Positions 793 through 8,548 of a stretch of 12,457 nucleotides of DNA are shown in pieces. The stretch is taken from assembly GCA_028704265.1 (NCBI GenBank), contig JAQVLH010000016.1, forward strand, positions 1 through 12,457. The letters are read 5' to 3'. This DNA comes from Candidatus Nanoarchaeia archaeon (GTDB lineage Archaea > Nanobdellota > Nanobdellia > Tiddalikarchaeales > Tiddalikarchaeaceae). Positions within the stretch are counted from its first letter, which is position 1, and the number at the start of each line of letters is the position of its first letter. The position numbers and the translations under genes were made by a program. The notes under the pieces are model-generated. The model searched no databases. It was not told where the DNA came from and saw only the letters and a list, made by a program, of their open reading frames with translations.

Positions 793-1197
793 ATGATGAG
801 TTATGAAGATTTAGTAAAAAGATTCAGGCAATTAATGCCATACAAAGGAGAAGAAAAAGTAAGATTTGAAGTTCCAAAAGTAAAAGGAAGAATGCAAGGA
901 AAGAAAACAATAATAAGCAATCTTAAGCAAATAGCTGACTTCTTAGACAGGGATGAAAAAATGCTTTTATCATTTTTATTAAAAGAATTAGCAACTAAAG
1001 GAATTCAAGAAGGACAATACACTAGCTTTAGCGGAAATTTTAGCGCTGATAAAATAAATGAAAAAGTGGATAAATTTGTTAGTGAATTCGTAAATTGCAG
1101 AGAATGCAAGAAACCAGATACTAAATTAGTGAAAAAAGACAGGGTAATGTTTATTACATGCATGGCATGCGGAGCAAAGTACCCGGTAAGAAAATGA
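793..1197 (+). CDS. eif2b: translation initiation factor aIF2 beta subunit
   Basis: 134 aa, the typical size. N-terminal YEDLVKRF... helix. C-terminal zinc ribbon CRECKKPDT...CMACGAKYPV (C-x2-C ... C-x2-C), characteristic of the eIF2-beta/eIF5 domain. Lies 6 nt after the previous stop. Confidence 0.9.
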   Translation: MMSYEDLVKRFRQLMPYKGEEKVRFEVPKVKGRMQGKKTIISNLKQIADFLDRDEKMLLSFLLKELATKGIQEGQYTSFSGNFSADKINEKVDKFVSEFVNCRECKKPDTKLVKKDRVMFITCMACGAKYPVRK

Positions 1198-1493
1198 TAC
1201 TTGCAAAATATCATCAATCTGAAAGAGATTTATTATTGGCAGCATGCGATTCTGATTTAATAGGCAAAACTATTATTTTAGAAAACGGGGCAGAGGTAAA
1301 AATATTAGAAAGCTTTTACAAAGATAAAATAGTCAGCGAAGAAGAATTAATAATCATGGCTAAAGAATGCACTACTGGGAATTTTTTCGGAAAAGAAACA
1401 ATTAATGCATTAACAAAAGCGGGAATAATATTCAAAGAATCAACAATGGACCTTAAAGGCGTGCCACACAGCCAATTATATAAATTTTTTTAA
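1194..1493 (+). CDS. DUF424-family conserved archaeal protein of unknown function
   Basis: MILAKYHQSERDLLLAACDSDLIGK... matches the DUF424 N-terminal pattern. I place the start at ATG 1194, which overlaps the aIF2-beta stop (ATGA at 1194-1197). The track start at 1158 would run 40 nt inside aIF2-beta. Confidence 0.7.
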   Translation: MILAKYHQSERDLLLAACDSDLIGKTIILENGAEVKILESFYKDKIVSEEELIIMAKECTTGNFFGKETINALTKAGIIFKESTMDLKGVPHSQLYKFF

Positions 1494-1852
1494 TATTCAA
1501 TATTTTTTTTATCAGGAATAAATTTAATTTCCAAACCCGAATTATACATTAATCTATCAACTGGTGCTGGAGATTTAGGCTCATCATCATCGTCATTATT
1601 ATTGCTAAATTCATGTTTTGAAACAGCATTTTTTAAAACTTTTTTGCTTTTAATTGCATTAAAATATTTCATAACTTCTTCCTTTTCCTTACCTGTTAAT
1701 TTTGGAGTAACTATTTCAGAATTATAATTTGAAACAGCGGCATTAAAATATTTAACTATTCTTTCCATTTCGCTGCCTGTTAATTCTGGAGAAACTATTT
1801 CAGCATTATGTTTTGAAACAGCGGCTTTAAAATACGATTGAATTTCACTCAT
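1490..1852 (-). CDS. hypothetical protein with about 28-aa tandem repeats and an acidic N/D-rich linker
   Basis: ATG start, with a TATA-like box centred about 28 nt upstream. Internal repeats are YFKAAVSKHNAEIVSPELTGSEMERIVK, YFNAAVSNYNSEIVTPKLTGKEKEEVMK and YFNAIKSKKVLKNAVSKHEF, then NNNDDDDE. I recognise no family. Confidence 0.6.
   Translation of the reverse strand: MSEIQSYFKAAVSKHNAEIVSPELTGSEMERIVKYFNAAVSNYNSEIVTPKLTGKEKEEVMKYFNAIKSKKVLKNAVSKHEFSNNNDDDDEPKSPAPVDRLMYNSGLEIKFIPDKKNIEY
1503..1510 (+). terminator. oligo-T (T8) candidate archaeal terminator for the plus-strand aIF2-beta/DUF424 unit
   Basis: Run of 8 T starting 10 nt after the DUF424 stop codon. It lies inside the C-terminal codons of the convergent minus-strand ORF. 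Confidence 0.35.
1692..1837. repeat. intragenic tandem duplication, period 84 nt (two well-conserved copies; a degenerate third copy at about 1605-1680)
   Basis: Copy A starts at 1692 (cctgttaattttggagtaactatttcagaattataatttgaaacagcggcattaaaata). Copy B starts at 1776 (cctgttaattctggagaaactatttcagcattatgttttgaaacagcggctttaaaata). My hand alignment gives 6 mismatches over the first 59 nt. Confidence 0.8.
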
Positions 1853-1870
1853 AATTATTAAAAAGAAATA

Positions 1871-1886
1871 ATTCTATTTAAAAAAG
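1871..1886 (-). promoter_or_regulatory. archaeal TATA-box promoter (plus-strand attctatttaaaaaag) for 1490-1852
   Basis: The minus strand reads CTTTTTTAAATAGAAT, centred about 28 nt upstream of the ATG at 1852. This implies a leaderless or very short-leader mRNA. The same 15-mer recurs at 2965-2979. Confidence 0.5.
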
Positions 1887-1908
1887 TATTTATGAGGGCA
1901 TTTTTAAT

Positions 1909-2391
1909 TTAAAGCATAATATTATTTTCATCATCAATTTTAAATACGCAATTTTCTTCAATCAATGTTAAAATTTTTTTAGCTTTTTTAACCTTTAATG
2001 ATTCTTCTTCATTTTCAGGAAGATGAGTTAGCACAAAATCCACAAAATTGTTGCTGTCATAACGAAAATGCAAATCGTTGATTTCTCCGATAGGGATATT
2101 ATCATTAAAGATAAAATTAATTATTTTGAATTTTGAAGATTCTTTATCACTCAAATATTTTAGGGCAAAATTTTTTATTTTTACTGGAATATTATCCAAG
2201 TAAGCTAATTTTTCCCTTGCAAATTCAGGGTGAGATTGAATAATATTATAGGCTTCTTCGTAAAGCTTTTGCTCAACTAAAAAATCAACAAAAGAAGATA
2301 AGTTTTTTTCATTTTTTTTAATGATTTTATTAACTGCGGTTTTTAATACTTCATAATTTTTTTTGAAAATTTCAGGATTTTCCTCAATCAT
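1909..2391 (-). CDS. hypothetical protein (160 aa)
   Basis: ATG start 20 nt downstream of the stop of 2412-2945, with no TATA-like box in that gap, so probably co-transcribed. No TM helix or signal peptide. No family recognised. Confidence 0.55.
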   Translation of the reverse strand: MIEENPEIFKKNYEVLKTAVNKIIKKNEKNLSSFVDFLVEQKLYEEAYNIIQSHPEFAREKLAYLDNIPVKIKNFALKYLSDKESSKFKIINFIFNDNIPIGEINDLHFRYDSNNFVDFVLTHLPENEEESLKVKKAKKILTLIEENCVFKIDDENNIML

Positions 2392-2411
2392 CCATTTAGG
2401 ATTTTTTTCAA

Positions 2412-2945
2412 TTATTTTTCAAGCATCAAAGAATCAGAATTTTGTAAAACTAATGATTTATAATCGACTATTTTGTCTTTAAACACATTATATTTATTTA
2501 ATAATGATGAAATGGCATTATAATATTTTTTGCCTATTAATTCTGGTATTTTTTCATTGATAATATTAAATCTTTTGCCAAGTTCATCATCAAGGCTTTT
2601 TATATAATTTTCATAATTATCTTTTTTTATAATATAATTTACAAGTTTTTTATATTCAATTCCGTTTTCATTAATAAAATTTGAATCTTGGATTATTTCA
2701 TAAAAAATTTTCATATTGTAAAATCTGTTAATCTCATTAATTGCGTCATTTTCTGAATAGTTATTTTTTGAAAAATCGGCCTTTAATGAAAAATCAGGAA
2801 AATTATTTTTAATATAATTGCTTGAAGTAGTTTTAAATAAAAATGATAACATTTTAGACATAAATTCTAGTTTCATCCAAGGGTTAAAATCAGGATTAAC
2901 TGAAGTGTCCTCTAAACTAAATTTTTGTTCTTCCATAATTATCAA
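2412..2945 (-). CDS. hypothetical protein (174-177 aa; start ambiguous)
   Basis: The track start at 2945 is a TTG. The first ATG is 9 nt downstream, at 2934-2936 (MEEQKF...). The TATA-like box at 2965-2979 is centred about 28 nt from the TTG and about 37 nt from the ATG. No family recognised. Confidence 0.55.
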   Translation of the reverse strand: MIIMEEQKFSLEDTSVNPDFNPWMKLEFMSKMLSFLFKTTSSNYIKNNFPDFSLKADFSKNNYSENDAINEINRFYNMKIFYEIIQDSNFINENGIEYKKLVNYIIKKDNYENYIKSLDDELGKRFNIINEKIPELIGKKYYNAISSLLNKYNVFKDKIVDYKSLVLQNSDSLMLEK

Positions 2946-2964
2946 TAAATTTAAATAAGAATTG

Positions 2965-2979
2965 ATTCTATTTAAAAAG
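2965..2979 (-). promoter_or_regulatory. archaeal TATA-box promoter (attctatttaaaaag) for the 2412-2945 / 1909-2391 pair
   Basis: Identical 15-mer to 1871-1885, sitting in the 51-nt gap between 2945 and 2997. Confidence 0.5.
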
Positions 2980-2996
2980 CTTTATAGCCGCATTTA

Positions 2997-3389
2997 TCAT
3001 CTTTCAATATTGCTGATTAATTCATCAAGGAATTCAAAATTTTTTTCTTTGCTTTTAAATTGCTCGCTAATTTTTTCCTTATTGTCAGTTATTATAATAT
3101 CAGAGTATTTAATACGCATATTAATTAATGAAGGAATATAATTTTTTCCAAAAAAACTAATAACATAATGCTTTTTTTCCAACAATTCGCTGCATTCTTT
3201 TTTTTTGTCCAAAGGTATGTAAATTGATATCATTTCAAGATTTTTTCTGCGTTCAGTTTCAACATTGGCATAATTAGGTTTTATAAGTGAAGTTTTTTCT
3301 TCAAAAATTCTATTAAAATAATTGTTAAATCTTTCTTCATCTTCTATATATACACTTACATCAATTATATCATTATTATTAATACTCAT
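2997..3389 (-). CDS. hypothetical protein (130 aa)
   Basis: ATG start. A palindromic TATA-like box is centred about 29 nt upstream. No TM helix or signal peptide. No family recognised. Confidence 0.55.
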   Translation of the reverse strand: MSINNNDIIDVSVYIEDEERFNNYFNRIFEEKTSLIKPNYANVETERRKNLEMISIYIPLDKKKECSELLEKKHYVISFFGKNYIPSLINMRIKYSDIIITDNKEKISEQFKSKEKNFEFLDELISNIER

Positions 3390-3409
3390 GAGAATAATAA
3401 TTATAAAAA

Positions 3410-3424
3410 ATTCTTTTTAAAAAG
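3410..3424 (-). promoter_or_regulatory. archaeal TATA-box promoter (attctttttaaaaag) for 2997-3389
   Basis: The core ctttttaaaaag (3413-3424) is a perfect 12-nt palindrome, centred about 29 nt upstream of the ATG at 3389. Confidence 0.45.
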
Positions 3425-3477
3425 ATTTCTATATTCATGCTGGCTTTTTTTTATAATATTAATTTTGTAGTCTATAG

Positions 3478-4440
3478 TTATTCCAAAGGGTTGGATTCAA
3501 AAGGTATTGAGCCCATAAATTTTTTCTTAAACTTCCTCCAGCTTGAATCAGGCTCGTAATTTTTTAAATCATTCCCTTCAATAAGCAAATTATATAAGTT
3601 TATTTTATCCTCAATATTATTGCAATGTCCTCTCATGTTTGCCAATAAAACATTATCATTGTAGGCATTCAAATTTATTTTAAAATTCTTAAGCCCAATC
3701 ATTTGGTTGGAAACTACTCTAAGCTTTTCAAGGCTTAATTTTTTAACGCTGTCAGGAAAAACAACCTTTTCATATCTTTCAATTTCCAATTCTGAAAGAT
3801 TTTCTAAATTGCCTATTCTTTCGTCAATTTTTAAATTTCTCATGCTGTCAATCAATAATAAGTCAAGCAAGAATTCGCTTTTAATTCTTTTAGATAAATC
3901 ATAAATTTCTGAAGAATTATGCCTAAAGCTCAAAGAGTCCCCCCTATAATTCATGTTTAATTTTTTGCATAAATATTCAGTTGCTTTAGGAAAATAAAAC
4001 TCAGGATGTTTAACTGCATCATGAATTTTCATAATATTTTCTTTGTCATTAATTTTCACTTCATTGCATGAGTAATAGCATAAAAAATCTAAATATTGAT
4101 AATGCTCTTTAGCCTGAATAGGGGTTACATTTTTTAATCCATGTTCAAGGTAAGAAGTGAAATTGCGAGTCATAAGATTTTCAATTTGAGGGCTCTGAAG
4201 CTTTAATCCTGTCAGATTTTTTAAGCTGAATATTTCAGGAGGAATAATTCCAGTAATGTGCGCATAGGTTATTTTATCATCTTCTATTTTGAAAAAATAA
4301 TCCCTTCGTAAAGCAGACCTGTTATTTTTAAGTGTAAGGGAGAATAAATAAGGCATTATTCCCTTATGCAATTCATAATTTTGGCTGAGCATTGATTCTA
4401 TAAATTTCTTGTCAGAGCTTATTAAATTTTCAATAACCAT
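3478..4440 (-). CDS. hypothetical protein with leucine-rich-repeat-like segments (320 aa)
   Basis: Two segments fit the LRR consensus: ITGIIPPEIFSLKNLTGLKLQSPQIENL (about residues 62-89) and IGNLENLSELEIERYEKVVFPDSVKKLSLEKLRVVSNQMIGLKNF (about residues 209-253). They are separated by about 120 residues I cannot assign. ATG start with a TATA-like box about 29 nt upstream. Confidence 0.6.
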   Translation of the reverse strand: MVIENLISSDKKFIESMLSQNYELHKGIMPYLFSLTLKNNRSALRRDYFFKIEDDKITYAHITGIIPPEIFSLKNLTGLKLQSPQIENLMTRNFTSYLEHGLKNVTPIQAKEHYQYLDFLCYYSCNEVKINDKENIMKIHDAVKHPEFYFPKATEYLCKKLNMNYRGDSLSFRHNSSEIYDLSKRIKSEFLLDLLLIDSMRNLKIDERIGNLENLSELEIERYEKVVFPDSVKKLSLEKLRVVSNQMIGLKNFKINLNAYNDNVLLANMRGHCNNIEDKINLYNLLIEGNDLKNYEPDSSWRKFKKKFMGSIPFESNPLE

Positions 4441-4461: not shown

Positions 4462-4474
4462 ATTATTTAAAAAT
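4462..4474 (-). promoter_or_regulatory. archaeal TATA-box promoter (attatttaaaaat) for 3478-4440
   Basis: Centred about 29 nt upstream of the ATG at 4440. Its T5 run on the minus strand lies about 25 nt after the carS stop, so it could also terminate carS transcription. Confidence 0.45.
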
Positions 4475-4496: not shown

Positions 4497-5012
4497 TTAC
4501 CAGGGCTCTTTTTTGACTCCAATCTTGTAGCCAATAATATTAGCTAATCTATGGATTAAAGGAGTTAAAGTTAATCCTATAATCATTACCCAATAAGAGT
4601 ATTCAGTAAGAATTCTAATAAAAATTAAAGTGCCAATCATAAAATCCATCATATCTAATAATCCTGCATTTTGGCCTCTTTTCATATTCATGCGTCTTTT
4701 GATAAAACTTCCAGTTAAATCTCCAAGCATTGCACCTAATCCAATGAAAGCGTAGCCAAAAGGAGTAATATTAATCCAAGGCAAATTAAGATAATAATAA
4801 ACATATTTTATTAATAATCCTGAAATAAACGCTATTAAGCAGGCAAAAATTAATCCTTCAAAAGTTTTACCTTCGCCAAAAATCCTATTTTTTCCCCATT
4901 TTTTTCCAAAATCAAGAGAGTGTTTTTTAAATTTTATTAAAAAAGTAGGAGCCCCATTTGCTAAATAAGCAGGCAAAAGTAGCTGAATTGTTGAAATTAT
5001 AATATTTAGCAT
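4497..5012 (-). CDS. carS: CDP-archaeol synthase (CDP-2,3-bis-O-geranylgeranyl-sn-glycerol synthase, DUF46 family)
   Basis: Multi-TM protein with the CarS signature blocks LLLPAYLANGAP, GEGKTFEG, LGDLTGSFIKRRMNMKRGQ and LLDMMDF. Confidence 0.85.
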   Translation of the reverse strand: MLNIIISTIQLLLPAYLANGAPTFLIKFKKHSLDFGKKWGKNRIFGEGKTFEGLIFACLIAFISGLLIKYVYYYLNLPWINITPFGYAFIGLGAMLGDLTGSFIKRRMNMKRGQNAGLLDMMDFMIGTLIFIRILTEYSYWVMIIGLTLTPLIHRLANIIGYKIGVKKEPW

Positions 5013-5063: not shown

Positions 5064-5645
5064 ATGAGTAAATTATCAAAGATGAGGGATATTTTTCATA
5101 AAATAATTAATCCTTTCATATTATTTTTAGTTAAATTAAAAATAACTCCAAATATGGTAACAACTTCTTCTTTATTTTTTTTAGGAATCACGATTTATTT
5201 TATCTTTAAACAAAATCTCATTCTTGCAGCAATATTCATGATTTTAACTTCAGTTATTGATTCCTTGGATGGAGCTTTAGCAAAAAAAGTGGGAAGCACT
5301 AAATTTGGAGATTTTTATGATGCTTTTATTGACAGATGGGTTGAAGTTTCAGTTTTTTATGCATTAAGCTTAGCGTATCCTTTACTTTATCATTTATGTT
5401 TTTTAGCATTAGTATTTTCATTAATGACTAGTTATGTTGCAGCAAGAGCAGAAGTATGGACTATTGGTGTAAAAATAAAATATGTCGGCTCTATTGGCAG
5501 CAGGGCAGGAAGATTAATCACTTTAATAACAGCAATGCTGTTCAATCAATTATATATTGGTTTAATTTTAATAATAATTTTTGCTTCAATAACAATGGTT
5601 GCAAGAACTGCAGTAGTTGTAAAAACTTTAAGAAAAAAAATTTAA
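5064..5645 (+). CDS. CDP-alcohol phosphatidyltransferase family enzyme (archaetidyl-headgroup synthase; headgroup not assignable)
   Basis: Multi-TM protein with DSLDGALAKKVGSTKFGDFYDAFIDR. This matches the D-x2-D-G-x2-A-[RK]...G-x3-D-x3-D signature, with K in place of the usual R. Confidence 0.8.
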   Translation: MSKLSKMRDIFHKIINPFILFLVKLKITPNMVTTSSLFFLGITIYFIFKQNLILAAIFMILTSVIDSLDGALAKKVGSTKFGDFYDAFIDRWVEVSVFYALSLAYPLLYHLCFLALVFSLMTSYVAARAEVWTIGVKIKYVGSIGSRAGRLITLITAMLFNQLYIGLILIIIFASITMVARTAVVVKTLRKKI

Positions 5646-6358
5646 TTATTTTGAAATGCCAATAAATCTTCAGTTGTTAATTTCTTCTTGTCTTTAAGCT
5701 TATCCCATGCTTGGTTTTCTTTTTCCTGTATTATTTTTTCAATCTTTTCCTTGTTTTCTTTGAAATTTTTTACCTTGAAATTTTTATTCTTCTTATAATC
5801 AACAATAGCATCATCTAATTCTTTTGACACAATTCTTCCTTCTTTTTTTAATTCTTTTATCTTTTTTTGAACAGCATTCATGCTATTGCTAAATTCATTG
5901 CTTTTTTCAGCATTTTCAATTACTGCCTGATGAAACTCATTATGGTCTTTTCTTTTTAATTCCAAACTTTTAACTAAAGATCTAATTTTAATAACAACCT
6001 GATTTTCTTTTTGAGCTTCATTTAACTCTTTTTTTAATTCCTTAATCTCTTTAAGTATTTGCTCCTCTTTTTTAATAGGCAAAGCATTTATTTGAAAGAA
6101 CCATTCTTTTTTATTAATTAAACTTATTAAAGATTTAATATCTTTAAAATTACTTGCTTTTTTTTCAACATTAAGGTCAGATAATTCTTTTAATATTTTT
6201 TTAACTTCAGCAACGCATTCTTCTCTTTTTTGCTTAGAATCCTTTACTAAAACATTAATCTCATTTCTAGACTTTTCAAGCTTTTTAAACTCATTAATAT
6301 TTTTTACAATTTCATGTCTTATATTTGCAGACTTTTCTTTTAATTCATTCAAATTCAA
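5642..6358 (-). CDS. conserved archaeal coiled-coil protein (COG1340-like)
   Basis: K/E-rich heptad-like sequence throughout. Central EWFFQINALPIKKEEQILKEIKELKKEL and terminal KKLTTEDLLAFQ resemble the COG1340 pattern as I remember it. The start is TTG (6356-6358); the frame opens only 12 nt upstream, and the first in-frame ATG is over 150 codons downstream. Confidence 0.5.
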   Translation of the reverse strand: MNLNELKEKSANIRHEIVKNINEFKKLEKSRNEINVLVKDSKQKREECVAEVKKILKELSDLNVEKKASNFKDIKSLISLINKKEWFFQINALPIKKEEQILKEIKELKKELNEAQKENQVVIKIRSLVKSLELKRKDHNEFHQAVIENAEKSNEFSNSMNAVQKKIKELKKEGRIVSKELDDAIVDYKKNKNFKVKNFKENKEKIEKIIQEKENQAWDKLKDKKKLTTEDLLAFQNN

Positions 6359-7509: not shown

Positions 7510-8445
7510 TTAAATAGAAATTGTGCCCTTTAAAAAAACTATGTTATAAATTTTTTCAAAAATTGGCAAAGAAATTTTTTTTTCATCAACTATTTTTCTT
7601 AAAATTTTTAAAGCATTTTCACCTTCAATAATCTGGCCTATGATTTCTTTAGCTTCATAGGATGATTTTCCTTGGGCAATTAATTCCCCGAATCTTTTAT
7701 TTCTTCCATCATTGCTTAAAGAGGTTACAATTAAATCCCCAATTCCTGCTAATGAATAAACACTTTTATTGCTTGCTCCTAAATTTTTGCAAATAATAGT
7801 CATTTCATTTAATGAGTTATAGATAAGCGCGGATTTAGTATTCATTCCATAATTTAATCCGCTAGCTATTCCTAAATAAATAGCGTAAATATTTTTTAAA
7901 AAACTGCAAAGTTCAACACCCAAAACATCATTGCTAATAGTAATATTATAATATTCTTTTTGAAAAATTTTCTTGCATTTATTTGCAGTTAATCCTTTTG
8001 AAGCAAAAACAACAAAAGTAGGAATTTTTTTCATAAGTTCATTAGCTATGCTTGGTCCTCCAACAACAACTATTTCATTATCAAAATATTCACTAATCAT
8101 TTGGCTCATAGTTTTATTAGTTAATTCATCTAATCCTTTAGAAAGAATAATAAAAATTGATTTTTTTGAAACAAAATTTTTCATCTCTTCGCAGACACTT
8201 CTTACAGCTTTAGAAGGAAGCGAAAAAACAACAATATCCGAATTAATTAAACATTCTTTTAAATTCATTGAAGAGGAGATATTATTTTCTAATTTAATTT
8301 CTGCATATTTTAAATTTAAATGATTATTATTAATATTTTCATAAACCTCTTTTTCAATAGTATACAACATTACTTTTGAATCAGCAGGTGCCAAGGTTGC
8401 AAAACTCGTGGCCATATTACCTGCTCCTAAAATAGCTATCTTCAT
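7510..8445 (-). CDS. gpsA: NAD(P)H-dependent glycerol-3-phosphate dehydrogenase (GpsA family)
   Basis: N-terminal Rossmann KIAILGAGNMATSFA, plus SKGL, GGPSIANEL, LKNIYAIYLGIASGLNYGMNTKSALI and LAGIGDLIVTSLSNDGRNKRFGELIAQG. These are collinear with the GpsA signature blocks. Confidence 0.85.
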   Translation of the reverse strand: MKIAILGAGNMATSFATLAPADSKVMLYTIEKEVYENINNNHLNLKYAEIKLENNISSSMNLKECLINSDIVVFSLPSKAVRSVCEEMKNFVSKKSIFIILSKGLDELTNKTMSQMISEYFDNEIVVVGGPSIANELMKKIPTFVVFASKGLTANKCKKIFQKEYYNITISNDVLGVELCSFLKNIYAIYLGIASGLNYGMNTKSALIYNSLNEMTIICKNLGASNKSVYSLAGIGDLIVTSLSNDGRNKRFGELIAQGKSSYEAKEIIGQIIEGENALKILRKIVDEKKISLPIFEKIYNIVFLKGTISI

Positions 8446-8467
8446 TAACTACTGATATAAAAAATAA

Positions 8468-8479
8468 ATTTTTAAATAG
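8468..8479 (-). promoter_or_regulatory. archaeal TATA-box promoter for gpsA-ferredoxin
   Basis: Plus-strand atttttaaatag reads CTATTTAAAAAT on the minus strand, centred about 28 nt upstream of the ATG at 8445. It lies in the 103-nt gap after pyk. Confidence 0.45.
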
Positions 8480-8548
8480 TTTGCCCTAATTATTTTAAAT
8501 TAACTATAATAGAAATATGCGTTGAAAAATATGAATTAATAACCATTT

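Follow-up and report, generated by a model that had tools for sequence, protein, structure and literature searches.

The block studied here comes from a Candidatus Nanoarchaeia MAG contig of approximately 26% GC, of which a stretch of 12,457 nucleotides (the window) was analysed. The ORF list bore out the run of five minus-strand ORFs that the first-pass annotation had reported between DUF424 and carS (120, 160, 177, 130 and 320 aa; A120, B160, C177, D130 and E320 in Table 1). The carS gene lies immediately upstream of E320 in the same orientation. The DUF424 gene is convergent on the block, and its stop codon overlaps that of A120, as had been described for the left edge; in relatives DUF424 adjoins either carS or cargo, including E homologues.

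Table 1. Features of the DUF424-carS interval and its flanks (positions in the window).
Feature	Position	Strand	Evidence or remark
DUF424, left flank	1158-1493	+	Pfam DUF424 E = 9.9e-16; synteny
A120 orphan ORF, 120 aa	1490-1852	-	ORF; codon score 0.58 bits/codon
Tandem duplication, 84 nt, in A120	1656-1739 + 1740-1823	-	82% identical; repeat search
A120 promoter, TATA box plus block-specific extension TTTTTAAATAGAAT	1871-1884	-	18 nt before ATG
B160 orphan ORF, 160 aa	1909-2391	-	ORF; codon score 0.34
C177 orphan ORF, 177 aa from TTG 2945	2412-2945	-	ORF; codon score 0.37
C177-B160 unit promoter TTTTTAAATAGAAT	2965-2978	-	19 nt before TTG; 14-mer identical to that of A120
D130 orphan ORF, 130 aa	2997-3389	-	ORF; codon score 0.43
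D130 promoter TTTTTAAAAAGAAT, third copy of the block-specific motif	3410-3423	-	20 nt before ATG
E320, soluble, 320 aa	3478-4440	-	ORF; homologues
LRR patch, ~3 degenerate units (…RIGNLENLSELEIERYEKVVFPDSVKKLSLEKLRVVSNQMIGL…), E320 residues ~194-261	3658-3861	-	Profile search; PDB
LRR patch, 1-2 units (ITGIIPPEIFSLKNLTGLKLQSPQIENL), E320 residues ~57-95	4156-4272	-	Profile matches
E320 own TATA box TTTTTAAATA	4464-4473	-	In the 56-nt spacer after carS
carS (CDP-archaeol synthase), right flank	4497-5012	-	Pfam CarS-like E = 6e-32; synteny

A codon model trained on conserved genes gave in-frame scores of 0.34-0.58 bits/codon in all five ORFs, and scores of approximately zero or below in the other frames (highest 0.06). 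The in-frame scores of A120, B160, C177 and D130 (hereafter A-D) were inside the range of the conserved genes. At least one stop-free run of at least 120 codons was present in just 6% of Markov-simulated blocks; here there are five, tiled on one strand. With host-like codons, standard TATA boxes and lengths beyond chance, the five ORFs look like real genes.

A TTTAAA box begins 29-32 nt 5' of the start codon in four of the five ORFs, as first claimed, with C177 counted from TTG 2945. This start agrees with the TATA spacing; the alternative start, ATG 2936, would give a protein of 174 aa. The same TATA type and spacing were found at carS and at the CDP-alcohol transferase, AI-2E transporter and G3PDH genes, and they are the genome-wide norm. 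B160 has no promoter of its own and starts 20 nt past the C177 stop (the distance given previously for the fifth ORF), and is therefore probably co-transcribed with C177. A block-specific promoter motif, TTTTTAAAWAGAAT, is common to the A, C-B and D units and missing at E320, whose promoter has no AGAAT extension. Two of the boxes had been described as an identical 15-mer; the repeated string exists, as a 14-mer. The motif TTTTTAAAWAGAAT occurs three times in the window, each time in the promoter of A, C or D (expected number 0.07; three reached in 0 of 200 shuffles), a shuffle statistic that is optimistic because the motif was defined post hoc from the same data. It was not found in approximately 65 kb of related loci. 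Its presence in the three units points to a shared origin or to co-regulation, and its position 18-20 nt before the starts suggests leaderless or near-leaderless mRNAs.

None of the five proteins reached the threshold in Pfam, NCBIfam, PADLOC or PHROGs, in agreement with the statement that they are unnameable from motifs. The companion statement, that all other CDSs of the window can be named, failed for a 238-aa coiled-coil protein with a sub-threshold DUF7121 match at best. A-D had no matches in the PDB, and none among viral (IMG/VR contigs) or GenBank phage sequences. Domain searches revealed no NTPase, nuclease, protease, TIR or other effector domain in the block proteins. They also revealed no integrase or transposase domain in the window, where there was no tRNA and no Rfam match, and the repeat search found no meaningful flanking repeat (the only one at a boundary is a palindrome that arose in coding sequence by coincidence); the corresponding remarks of the first-pass annotation were thus confirmed. 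The same applies to the lack of signal peptides and TM helices, as none of the five proteins has a TM helix or a hydrophobic N-terminus (maximum Kyte-Doolittle 19-residue mean below 0.8; both carS and the AI-2E transporter exceed 2.2). The short helical motif proposed for three block proteins had no statistical support, the best pair being A120/C177 (20 aa, E = 0.24).

In A120, a 28-aa repeat (YFxAAVSxxNxEIVxPxLTGxExE..K) is present in approximately 2.5 copies; the protein also has a linker of acidic, low-complexity sequence and, at its C-terminus, a short tail. The repeat is encoded by the 84-nt duplication, which shows sequence expansion in place; just two diagonals, this one included, had at least 31/38 matches (0 in 40 simulations). 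A120 remained a singleton in clustering at 90% identity. D130 has a predicted alternating beta/alpha pattern, and its single-sequence AlphaFold2 model was too low in confidence for use (pLDDT 44). The C177 and D130 genes are the most AT-rich among the soluble-protein genes of the window.

E320 has three relatives (P0002, 55% identity; P0007, 31%; P0019, approximately 30%) and, judged by these matches, is not a strict orphan. The four known members of the E family are Nanoarchaeia-restricted, soluble and approximately 310-320 aa long, and all are located in the carS/DUF424 interval (in locus L012 the DUF424 side alone is visible). E320 is under purifying selection, as pN was 0.27 and pS 0.73. 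With a dN of 0.34, E320 has a substitution rate close to that of DUF424 next to it (0.28), and the description of the block as fast-evolving fails for this gene. The LRR-like segments noticed in one protein proved real at the profile level: E320 has 3-4 degenerate LRR units in two patches, with a repeat-free stretch of approximately 100 residues between them. The E-family profile search gave 574 matches, mostly multi-stretch, the long ones falling repeatedly on query positions 190-260; all eight long matches checked against Pfam were genuine LRR proteins. Against the PDB, the profile matched LIC11098 (4u08, E = 3.7e-14) and also SHOC-2. Query positions 56-99 matched LRR proteins, including the plant LRR receptor kinases FLS2, ERL1/2 and MIK2. 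The best Pfam LRR match of E320 was below the gathering score (LRR_14, 12 bits vs. a cut-off of 40), and its AlphaFold2 model was likewise too low in confidence for use (pLDDT 44), with no visible solenoid.

The junction was compared across nine related loci. In L002-L004, L006 and L008 the flanks are syntenic (66-96% amino-acid identity) and all five block proteins are missing. No gene lies between DUF424 and carS in L002, where the stop codons of the flanking genes are 6 bp apart, or in L006; L003 carries an unrelated 161-aa ORF there, L004 an unrelated 404-aa ORF on the opposite strand, and L008 a gap of similar size. The cargo proteins showed no mutual relation (hhalign, blastp). An E homologue occupies the same position and orientation in L005, where it is touched by carS and DUF424 with no space for A-D, and in L011, with a 110-nt spacer; in L012 the contig ends inside the E homologue (three of the four E loci are known from short contigs only). 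Among the loci compared, A-D are present in the window lineage only. The content of the interval thus varies in relatives (empty, unrelated ORFs, E alone), as expected from the claim that this is the only accessory part of the window. In the loci compared, the five families do not co-occur: three other lineages have E alone, A-D were seen in the window lineage only, and the block is therefore not a single unit. The identity of aIF2-beta to that of the window is 85-96% in lineages without E and 70-72% in the E-bearing L011 and L012. Because the E-less lineages are the closer ones, E is, on this comparison of sequences, ancestral at the junction and appears to have been lost or replaced repeatedly. 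The view of the block as resident and not inserted therefore stands for E320; A-D were either added to an E-only state or lost in all other lineages sampled. The L002 and L003 genomes are 94-97% identical in DNA, yet differ at three junction sites with ORFan cargo, and identity falls to 84-89% beside two of the three. Changing orphan-gene content at such a junction is fairly ordinary for related DPANN archaea.

We favour, with a probability of roughly 0.7, a gene-turnover hotspot at a convergent junction, in which an ancestral LRR-motif protein is accompanied by a young A-D orphan cassette, and not a demonstrated defence module. The OB-fold/aIF2-beta/DUF424 (plus) and carS (minus) units meet tail to tail at the 3-kb interval, and such a junction would tolerate insertions because no promoter or operon gets disrupted. 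The interval would hold two unrelated layers. The first is E320, the putative original occupant, which has a standard promoter of its own immediately downstream of carS; by its motif, it is most likely a cytoplasmic protein-binding adaptor acting through the LRR surface. The second would be A-D, four orphan genes in three units (A; C-B; D) between E and DUF424, which may encode small soluble lineage-specific proteins rather than components of an E-centred machine. Cargo was probably exchanged through recombination in the conserved flanking genes and not by a site-specific element, a mechanism suggested by a single genome pair.

An origin of A-D from a virus, plasmid or other mobile element that integrated beside E and then decayed, losing its integrase and ends, is unlikely. 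Their absence from every sampled relative, the A/C/D promoter type unseen elsewhere in the window and in the related DNA, and the AT-richness of C and D would fit such an origin, and both archaeal viruses and genomic islands typically carry orphan genes (Hsiao et al. 2005, PMC1285063). However, host-like codon usage and the lack of any integrase, transposase, tRNA or att-like repeat argue against a remnant; the absence of relatives in IMG/VR contigs, GenBank phages and PHROGs weighs little, because DPANN viruses are poorly sampled.

Somewhat less probable still is that the five genes form a single lineage-specific module for defence, immunity or host interaction, with E as the sensor of a target and A-D as its small partners or effectors in the cytoplasm. 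For DPANN archaea, which live on hosts, interaction proteins are plausible, and the LRR motifs of E are real and belong to a fold that often serves recognition; the five genes are neighbouring, on the same strand and closely packed, and the promoter motif common to A, C-B and D suggests co-regulation. By contrast, E occurs without A-D in L005, L011 and L012, its own promoter does not carry that motif, a surface role is unlikely without signal peptides or TM helices, and the junctions of other relatives carry unrelated cargo. The defence reading found no positive evidence in PADLOC matches, effector domains or viral or phage links (all zero).

We consider it very improbable that A-D are ordinary vertical genes of an under-sampled clade, ancestral together with E and lost in the sampled relatives by streamlining. 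Their codons, GC content and promoters are host-like, insertion scars are absent, clean gene deletion is evident in L002, and the window lineage is compositionally distinct (26.5% GC vs. 32-38% in relatives), with no close relative reaching the block among the sampled loci. Nevertheless, all four genes would have been lost independently in every other lineage, including the three keeping E, no trace of A-D is seen in the spacer of L011 or in L005, and the A120 duplication suggests recent evolution in place. It is hardly credible that A-D, in part or as a whole, are non-functional ORFs, spurious or decaying: they have no recorded homologue, their sequences are of low complexity (N-, K- and I-rich) and both AlphaFold2 models were of low confidence, but stop-free runs of 120-177 codons are rare at such AT content, the four ORFs tile a single strand with gaps of 20-56 nt, their codon scores match conserved genes in frame only, and a TATA box is well placed at each transcription unit.

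Compared with known systems, the E-family profile aligns repeatedly to small bacterial LRR proteins (Leptospira LIC11098, LIC12759 and LIC10831; PDB 4u08, 4u09 and 4u06) and to the repeats of Roco proteins, SHOC-2 and plant receptor kinases. E320 and its relatives share the (L/I)Px(x)IGxLxxLxxLxLxxNxL-type unit of these proteins. Unlike them, E has few, degenerate units as well as family-specific N- and C-terminal regions, is below every Pfam LRR gathering score, and has no signal peptide, lipobox, Roc/COR, kinase or NTPase partner domain; its family is known from a single site in the genomes of one Nanoarchaeia clade. LRR immune sensors (prokaryotic NLR/STAND-like systems, Roco proteins) likewise offer LRR units as a possible recognition surface; in contrast to them, E and its neighbours have no NTPase, effector or signalling domain, and E stands alone in other genomes. 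Flexible genomic islands and islets are enriched in novel genes (e.g. Hsiao et al. 2005, PLoS Genet, PMC1285063). Compared with them, the junction is tiny (0-3 kb, 0-5 genes), has no integrase, tRNA or direct repeats, matches the host in composition and codons, and keeps its occupant E in position across deep divergence. It resembles the islands so described in being one fixed site among conserved genes with varying, mostly orphan cargo, and in that the close genomes L002 and L003 differ in cargo at several such sites.

The five minus-strand ORFs of the block (locus tags PHN56_01645 to PHN56_01665) lie where the first-pass annotation had placed them. In Markov simulations of the block, at least one stop-free run of at least 120 codons appeared in just 6% of the replicates; the real block holds five such runs, tiled on one strand. 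In-frame codon scores of the block ORFs were 0.34-0.58 bits per codon under a model trained on the conserved genes of the window (0.06-0.65 bits per codon for the conserved genes, each left out of training), and the alternative frames all scored approximately zero or below, the highest being 0.06. As far as sequence can show, the five ORFs are genes. GC content was 21-29% in the block and 20-32% in the individual conserved genes of the window; neither foreign composition nor foreign codon usage was detected in the cargo, whose codon scores lie inside the conserved-gene range. The proteins could not be assigned to a known family, as had been claimed: none of the five, that is, neither E320 (E) nor A120, B160, C177 and D130 (A-D), reached the curated threshold in Pfam, NCBIfam, PADLOC or PHROGs, and all five lack hydrophobic segments of the kind expected for a signal peptide or a transmembrane helix.

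Related loci were obtained by an aIF2-beta scan (one genome per species), a carS alignment against metagenomes and exact look-ups of homologues, which yielded nine independent loci (ten with the window). The flanking genes are syntenic in the closer relatives (66-96% amino-acid identity), while the DUF424-carS interval has at least five content states across the ten loci. The interval is empty in L002 and L006, with 6 bp separating both stop codons; it holds one unrelated ORF in L003 (161 aa, hydrophobic at the C-terminus), another unrelated ORF in L004 (404 aa, opposite strand), a gap of approximately 1.25 kb, similar in size to that of L004, in L008, an E320 homologue alone in L005, L011 and L012, and A-E in the window. 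Gene content at this position thus varies although the flanks are conserved and syntenic, as in a flexible islet or gene-turnover hotspot, and the first-pass description of an accessory, variable region was borne out. In L011, a 29-aa ORF and a spacer of approximately 110 nt, unlike A-D, lie between the E homologue and DUF424 and could be a remnant or seed of extra cargo.

Coordinates of the features discussed in the window and in the related loci
Feature	Contig	Position	Strand	Remarks
A120	window	1490-1852	-
B160	window	1909-2391	-
C177	window	2412-2945	-
D130	window	2997-3389	-
E320	window	3478-4440	-
Tandem duplication in A120	window	1656-1823	-	84 nt, 82% identity
Boundary repeat D5	window	1470-1507, 3584-3621
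DUF424 ORF as listed	window	1158-1493	+	40-nt overlap with aIF2-beta 3' end (1158-1197)
DUF424, probable start	window	1167	+	31-nt overlap with aIF2-beta
carS	window	4497-5012	-
CDP-alcohol phosphatidyltransferase	window	5064-5645
Coiled-coil protein	window	5642-6358	-	238 aa
GpsA-like dehydrogenase	window	7510-8445	-
carS	L002	4177-4692
carS	L003	6098-6613
G3PDH/pyruvate kinase junction	window	8446-8548		spacer of approximately 100 nt
G3PDH/pyruvate kinase junction	L002	8159-9670		503-aa orphan ORF, no window homologue
G3PDH/pyruvate kinase junction	L003	10088-11562		approximately 1.47 kb, not alignable to L002
Third indel site	L003	1983-3391		1.4-kb insertion (or deletion in L002)
Third indel site	L002	1984/1985
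29-aa ORF	L011	1250-1339

That the 161-aa and 404-aa ORFs or A-D are diverged relatives of E was rejected, and no kinship was detected among the cargo proteins (hhalign probabilities below 1%; all-vs-all blastp E > 0.2). The alternative cargo proteins match no Pfam family. The idea that the five genes form one unit did not hold either. E occurs without A-D in three lineages, A-D were seen nowhere else, and the co-occurrence of component families expected of a five-gene module was not found in a search that, for A-D homologues, was not exhaustive. In L005, the E homologue directly abuts carS on one side and DUF424 on the other, leaving no room for A-D.

A word-indexed search of 5.8 billion proteins returned a single relative of E320 (P0002, 55% identity, full length), and two further relatives, P0007 (313 aa, 31% identity, E = 1.4e-21) and P0019 (cut at the N-terminus), emerged when 1.84 billion cluster representatives were searched exhaustively with a profile. 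All members of this family (4/4) lie in the carS/DUF424 interval and are oriented as carS. E is present in the distant lineages L011 (aIF2-beta 70%, carS 61% and DUF424 44% identical to the window) and L012 (aIF2-beta 72%, DUF424 40%) while it is absent from nearer ones (aIF2-beta 95.5% identical in L002 and L003, 85-87% in L004 and L008), indicating that it is the ancestral occupant of the junction and that loss or replacement of E occurred on more than one occasion. In the comparison of the window with L005, pN was 0.27 and pS 0.73 for E (nominal dN/dS approximately 0.13, dS being saturated), and dN was 0.34 for E, 0.28 for DUF424 and 0.15-0.19 for carS. E is constrained, and its rate is just slightly above that of its fastest neighbour.

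The E320 sequence contains the LRR motif (tandem 20-30-residue units, LxxLxLxx(N/C)xL). The E-family profile produced multi-stretch matches at query positions 57-95 and 190-260 (E down to 7e-25); the other matches, approximately 570, were mostly long proteins, each aligned 5-17 times by these two stretches. All eight of the long matches scanned against Pfam were genuine LRR proteins (LRR_14, LRR_8 or LRR_4), and half of them (4/8) carried Roc or Roc-COR domains; Roc-COR domains were confined to these distant matches and are absent from the E family. Among PDB structures, Leptospira LIC11098 was matched with E = 3.7e-14 in an alignment showing IGxLxxLxxL, and FLS2 and SHOC-2 were likewise matched by the profile on the IGxLxxLxxLxL motif. 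E320 scored below every Pfam LRR cut-off (LRR_14, E = 0.086, 12 bits against a cut-off of 40), as did P0002 and P0007 (13-14 bits), and it had no NCBIfam match. With the motif present and the curated threshold missed, E partly qualifies as an LRR protein; it carries approximately 3-4 degenerate LRR units in two patches. AlphaFold2 prediction from a two-sequence alignment gave a poor model (mean pLDDT 44) with helices in the repeat region. Judged from the motif alone, E would have a cytoplasmic protein-binding role. The E family is small, previously undescribed and clade-restricted, has LRR motifs and is tied to the carS/DUF424/aIF2-beta neighbourhood; the binding partner of E, if found, could point to a conserved function linked to that neighbourhood.

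A-D had no relatives in the related loci and nothing better than E = 0.14 among PDB sequences. A, B and D are singletons at 90% clustering, and C177 was absent from the protein collection in the 174-aa ATG form that was looked up; A-D are provisionally regarded as proteins without homologues. D130 gave a poor AlphaFold2 model from its single sequence (pLDDT 44). A tandem duplication in A120 encodes a 28-aa repeat, YFxAAVSxxNxEIVxPxLTGxExE..K, together with a third partial copy, and the repeat matches no known family.

Four of the five ORFs are preceded by TTTAAA boxes (beginning 29-32 nt ahead of the start codon), and B160 starts 20 nt past the end of C177, in line with the first-pass annotation. 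Box and spacing are the standard promoter of this genome, being the same at carS, the CDP-alcohol transferase, the transporter and G3PDH. Two finer claims had to be corrected: the identical 15-mer described at two promoters is actually a 14-mer, and the helical motif said to be shared by three of the proteins had no statistical support. The promoters of the predicted transcription units A, C-B and D have in common an extended motif, TTTTTAAAWAGAAT, located 18-20 nt before the start codon; the E promoter and the housekeeping promoters share with them just the TATA core. TTTTTAAAWAGAAT occurs three times in the window, never beyond those promoters (chance expectation 0.07), and 0 of 200 shuffles reached three, for a motif defined after seeing the data. 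It is absent from approximately 65 kb of related loci. TTTTTAAAWAGAAT sets A-D apart from E as a unit with a shared origin or shared regulation, and it gives the cassette a specific promoter motif that can be tested. A-D are probably a young, lineage-specific orphan cassette, situated at a junction whose content changes from one close relative to the next.

The searches for a mobile-element or viral origin of the block were negative. No integrase, transposase or other recombinase gene was detected in the block or the rest of the window (Pfam, NCBIfam, PHROGs), nor any tRNA that could serve as a target, as had been reported, nor any Rfam family. The block proteins had no match in PHROGs and no relatives in IMG/VR contigs, and A-D had none in GenBank phages (tblastn), collections in which DPANN mobile elements are poorly sampled. 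D5, the sole boundary repeat above chance, was rejected as an insertion scar or att site, because it lies inside the E coding region, stops at 38 nt, is near-palindromic (AATTATATAA, which encodes "LY" codons on both strands) and recurs in L005.

How the content changes was suggested by L002 and L003, whose DNA is 94-97% identical and which yet differ at three gene junctions, each apparently with ORFan cargo. Next to two of the three, DUF424-carS among them, identity drops to 84-89%. The carS genes of the pair are 85% identical; among the neighbours of carS, aIF2-beta is 99.3% and the CDP-alcohol transferase 98.4% identical. This suggests that a divergent carS allele was imported by recombination along with the cargo ORF. 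Cargo may accordingly be swapped through homologous recombination in flanking genes, a step proposed from this one genome pair, and insertions would do least harm at a tail-to-tail junction. The other two variable sites of the pair, one of them between G3PDH and pyruvate kinase, are listed in the table.

The window is a complete contig (12,457 bp, GC 26.5%) of a Candidatus Nanoarchaeia (DPANN) metagenome-assembled genome, and Logan contigs from run SRR22315503 carry DNA identical to it. The Logan contigs L001 and L013 showed 100% identity with the window and hence offered no population variants for a pN/pS of A-D; the strain contig L010 is 98% identical and ends in carS, and exact look-ups of aIF2-beta and carS for population variants added nothing new. 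Outside the block the window encodes ordinary proteins: an OB-fold RPA-like protein, aIF2-beta, DUF424, carS, a CDP-alcohol phosphatidyltransferase, a coiled-coil protein, an AI-2E-family transporter, ferredoxin, a GpsA-type glycerol-3-phosphate dehydrogenase, pyruvate kinase, a thioredoxin-reductase-like flavoprotein and aIF5B, truncated at the contig end. The coiled-coil protein, kept in relatives at 61-89% identity and matching DUF7121 below threshold (22.5 bits against a cut-off of 29), is another core gene that is effectively unnamed. DUF424 orthologues in L003 and L004 begin at an internal Met (MRS...), which is probably the true start. The GpsA-like NAD-dependent enzyme is bacterial-type (Pfam NAD_Gly3P_dh_N and _C) and is encoded within a few kb of carS and the CDP-alcohol phosphatidyltransferase gene, both archaeal lipid genes, a proximity that may be of interest for the lipid stereochemistry of this archaeon. 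The GC content of the window compares with 30-38% in all relatives (L002-L012), despite the 70-96% identity of the flank proteins, which suggests a strong drift of the lineage towards AT.

The defence or immunity function put forward in the first-pass annotation found no support. None of the five proteins had a match in PADLOC-DB v2 at E <= 1, and the interval is not a member of any defence system of that collection. Neither E nor A-D has an NTPase domain (NACHT, NB-ARC, Roc) or an effector domain, and the interval consequently does not belong to the NLR- or Roco-type sensors. No literature specific to DPANN LRR proteins or to this MAG was found. It is also conceivable, and in our judgement very unlikely, that A-D are a co-regulated cassette recruited beside an ancestral LRR adaptor, the two jointly serving a DPANN episymbiont as a lineage-specific system for recognition or host interaction. 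E would then be a binding scaffold and the fast-turnover orphan proteins its swappable partners, and the unrelated 161-aa and 404-aa ORFs of sister genomes would be other cassettes using this docking site.

The original observation was largely right, and the apparent five-gene mystery module resolves into two things, the E family and the orphan cassette, with limited impact. The case illustrates that orphan genes are still being gained and lost at tail-to-tail junctions of streamlined DPANN genomes without visible mobile-element machinery. So far there is no sign of a new kind of system; a new small LRR-motif family and a lineage-specific orphan cassette share a known kind of variable site. 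Flexible genomic islands are described as enriched in novel genes (Hsiao et al. 2005, PMC1285063). Unlike flexible genomic islets, the interval is without foreign composition and mobility genes; in its richness in novel genes it resembles such an islet in miniature.
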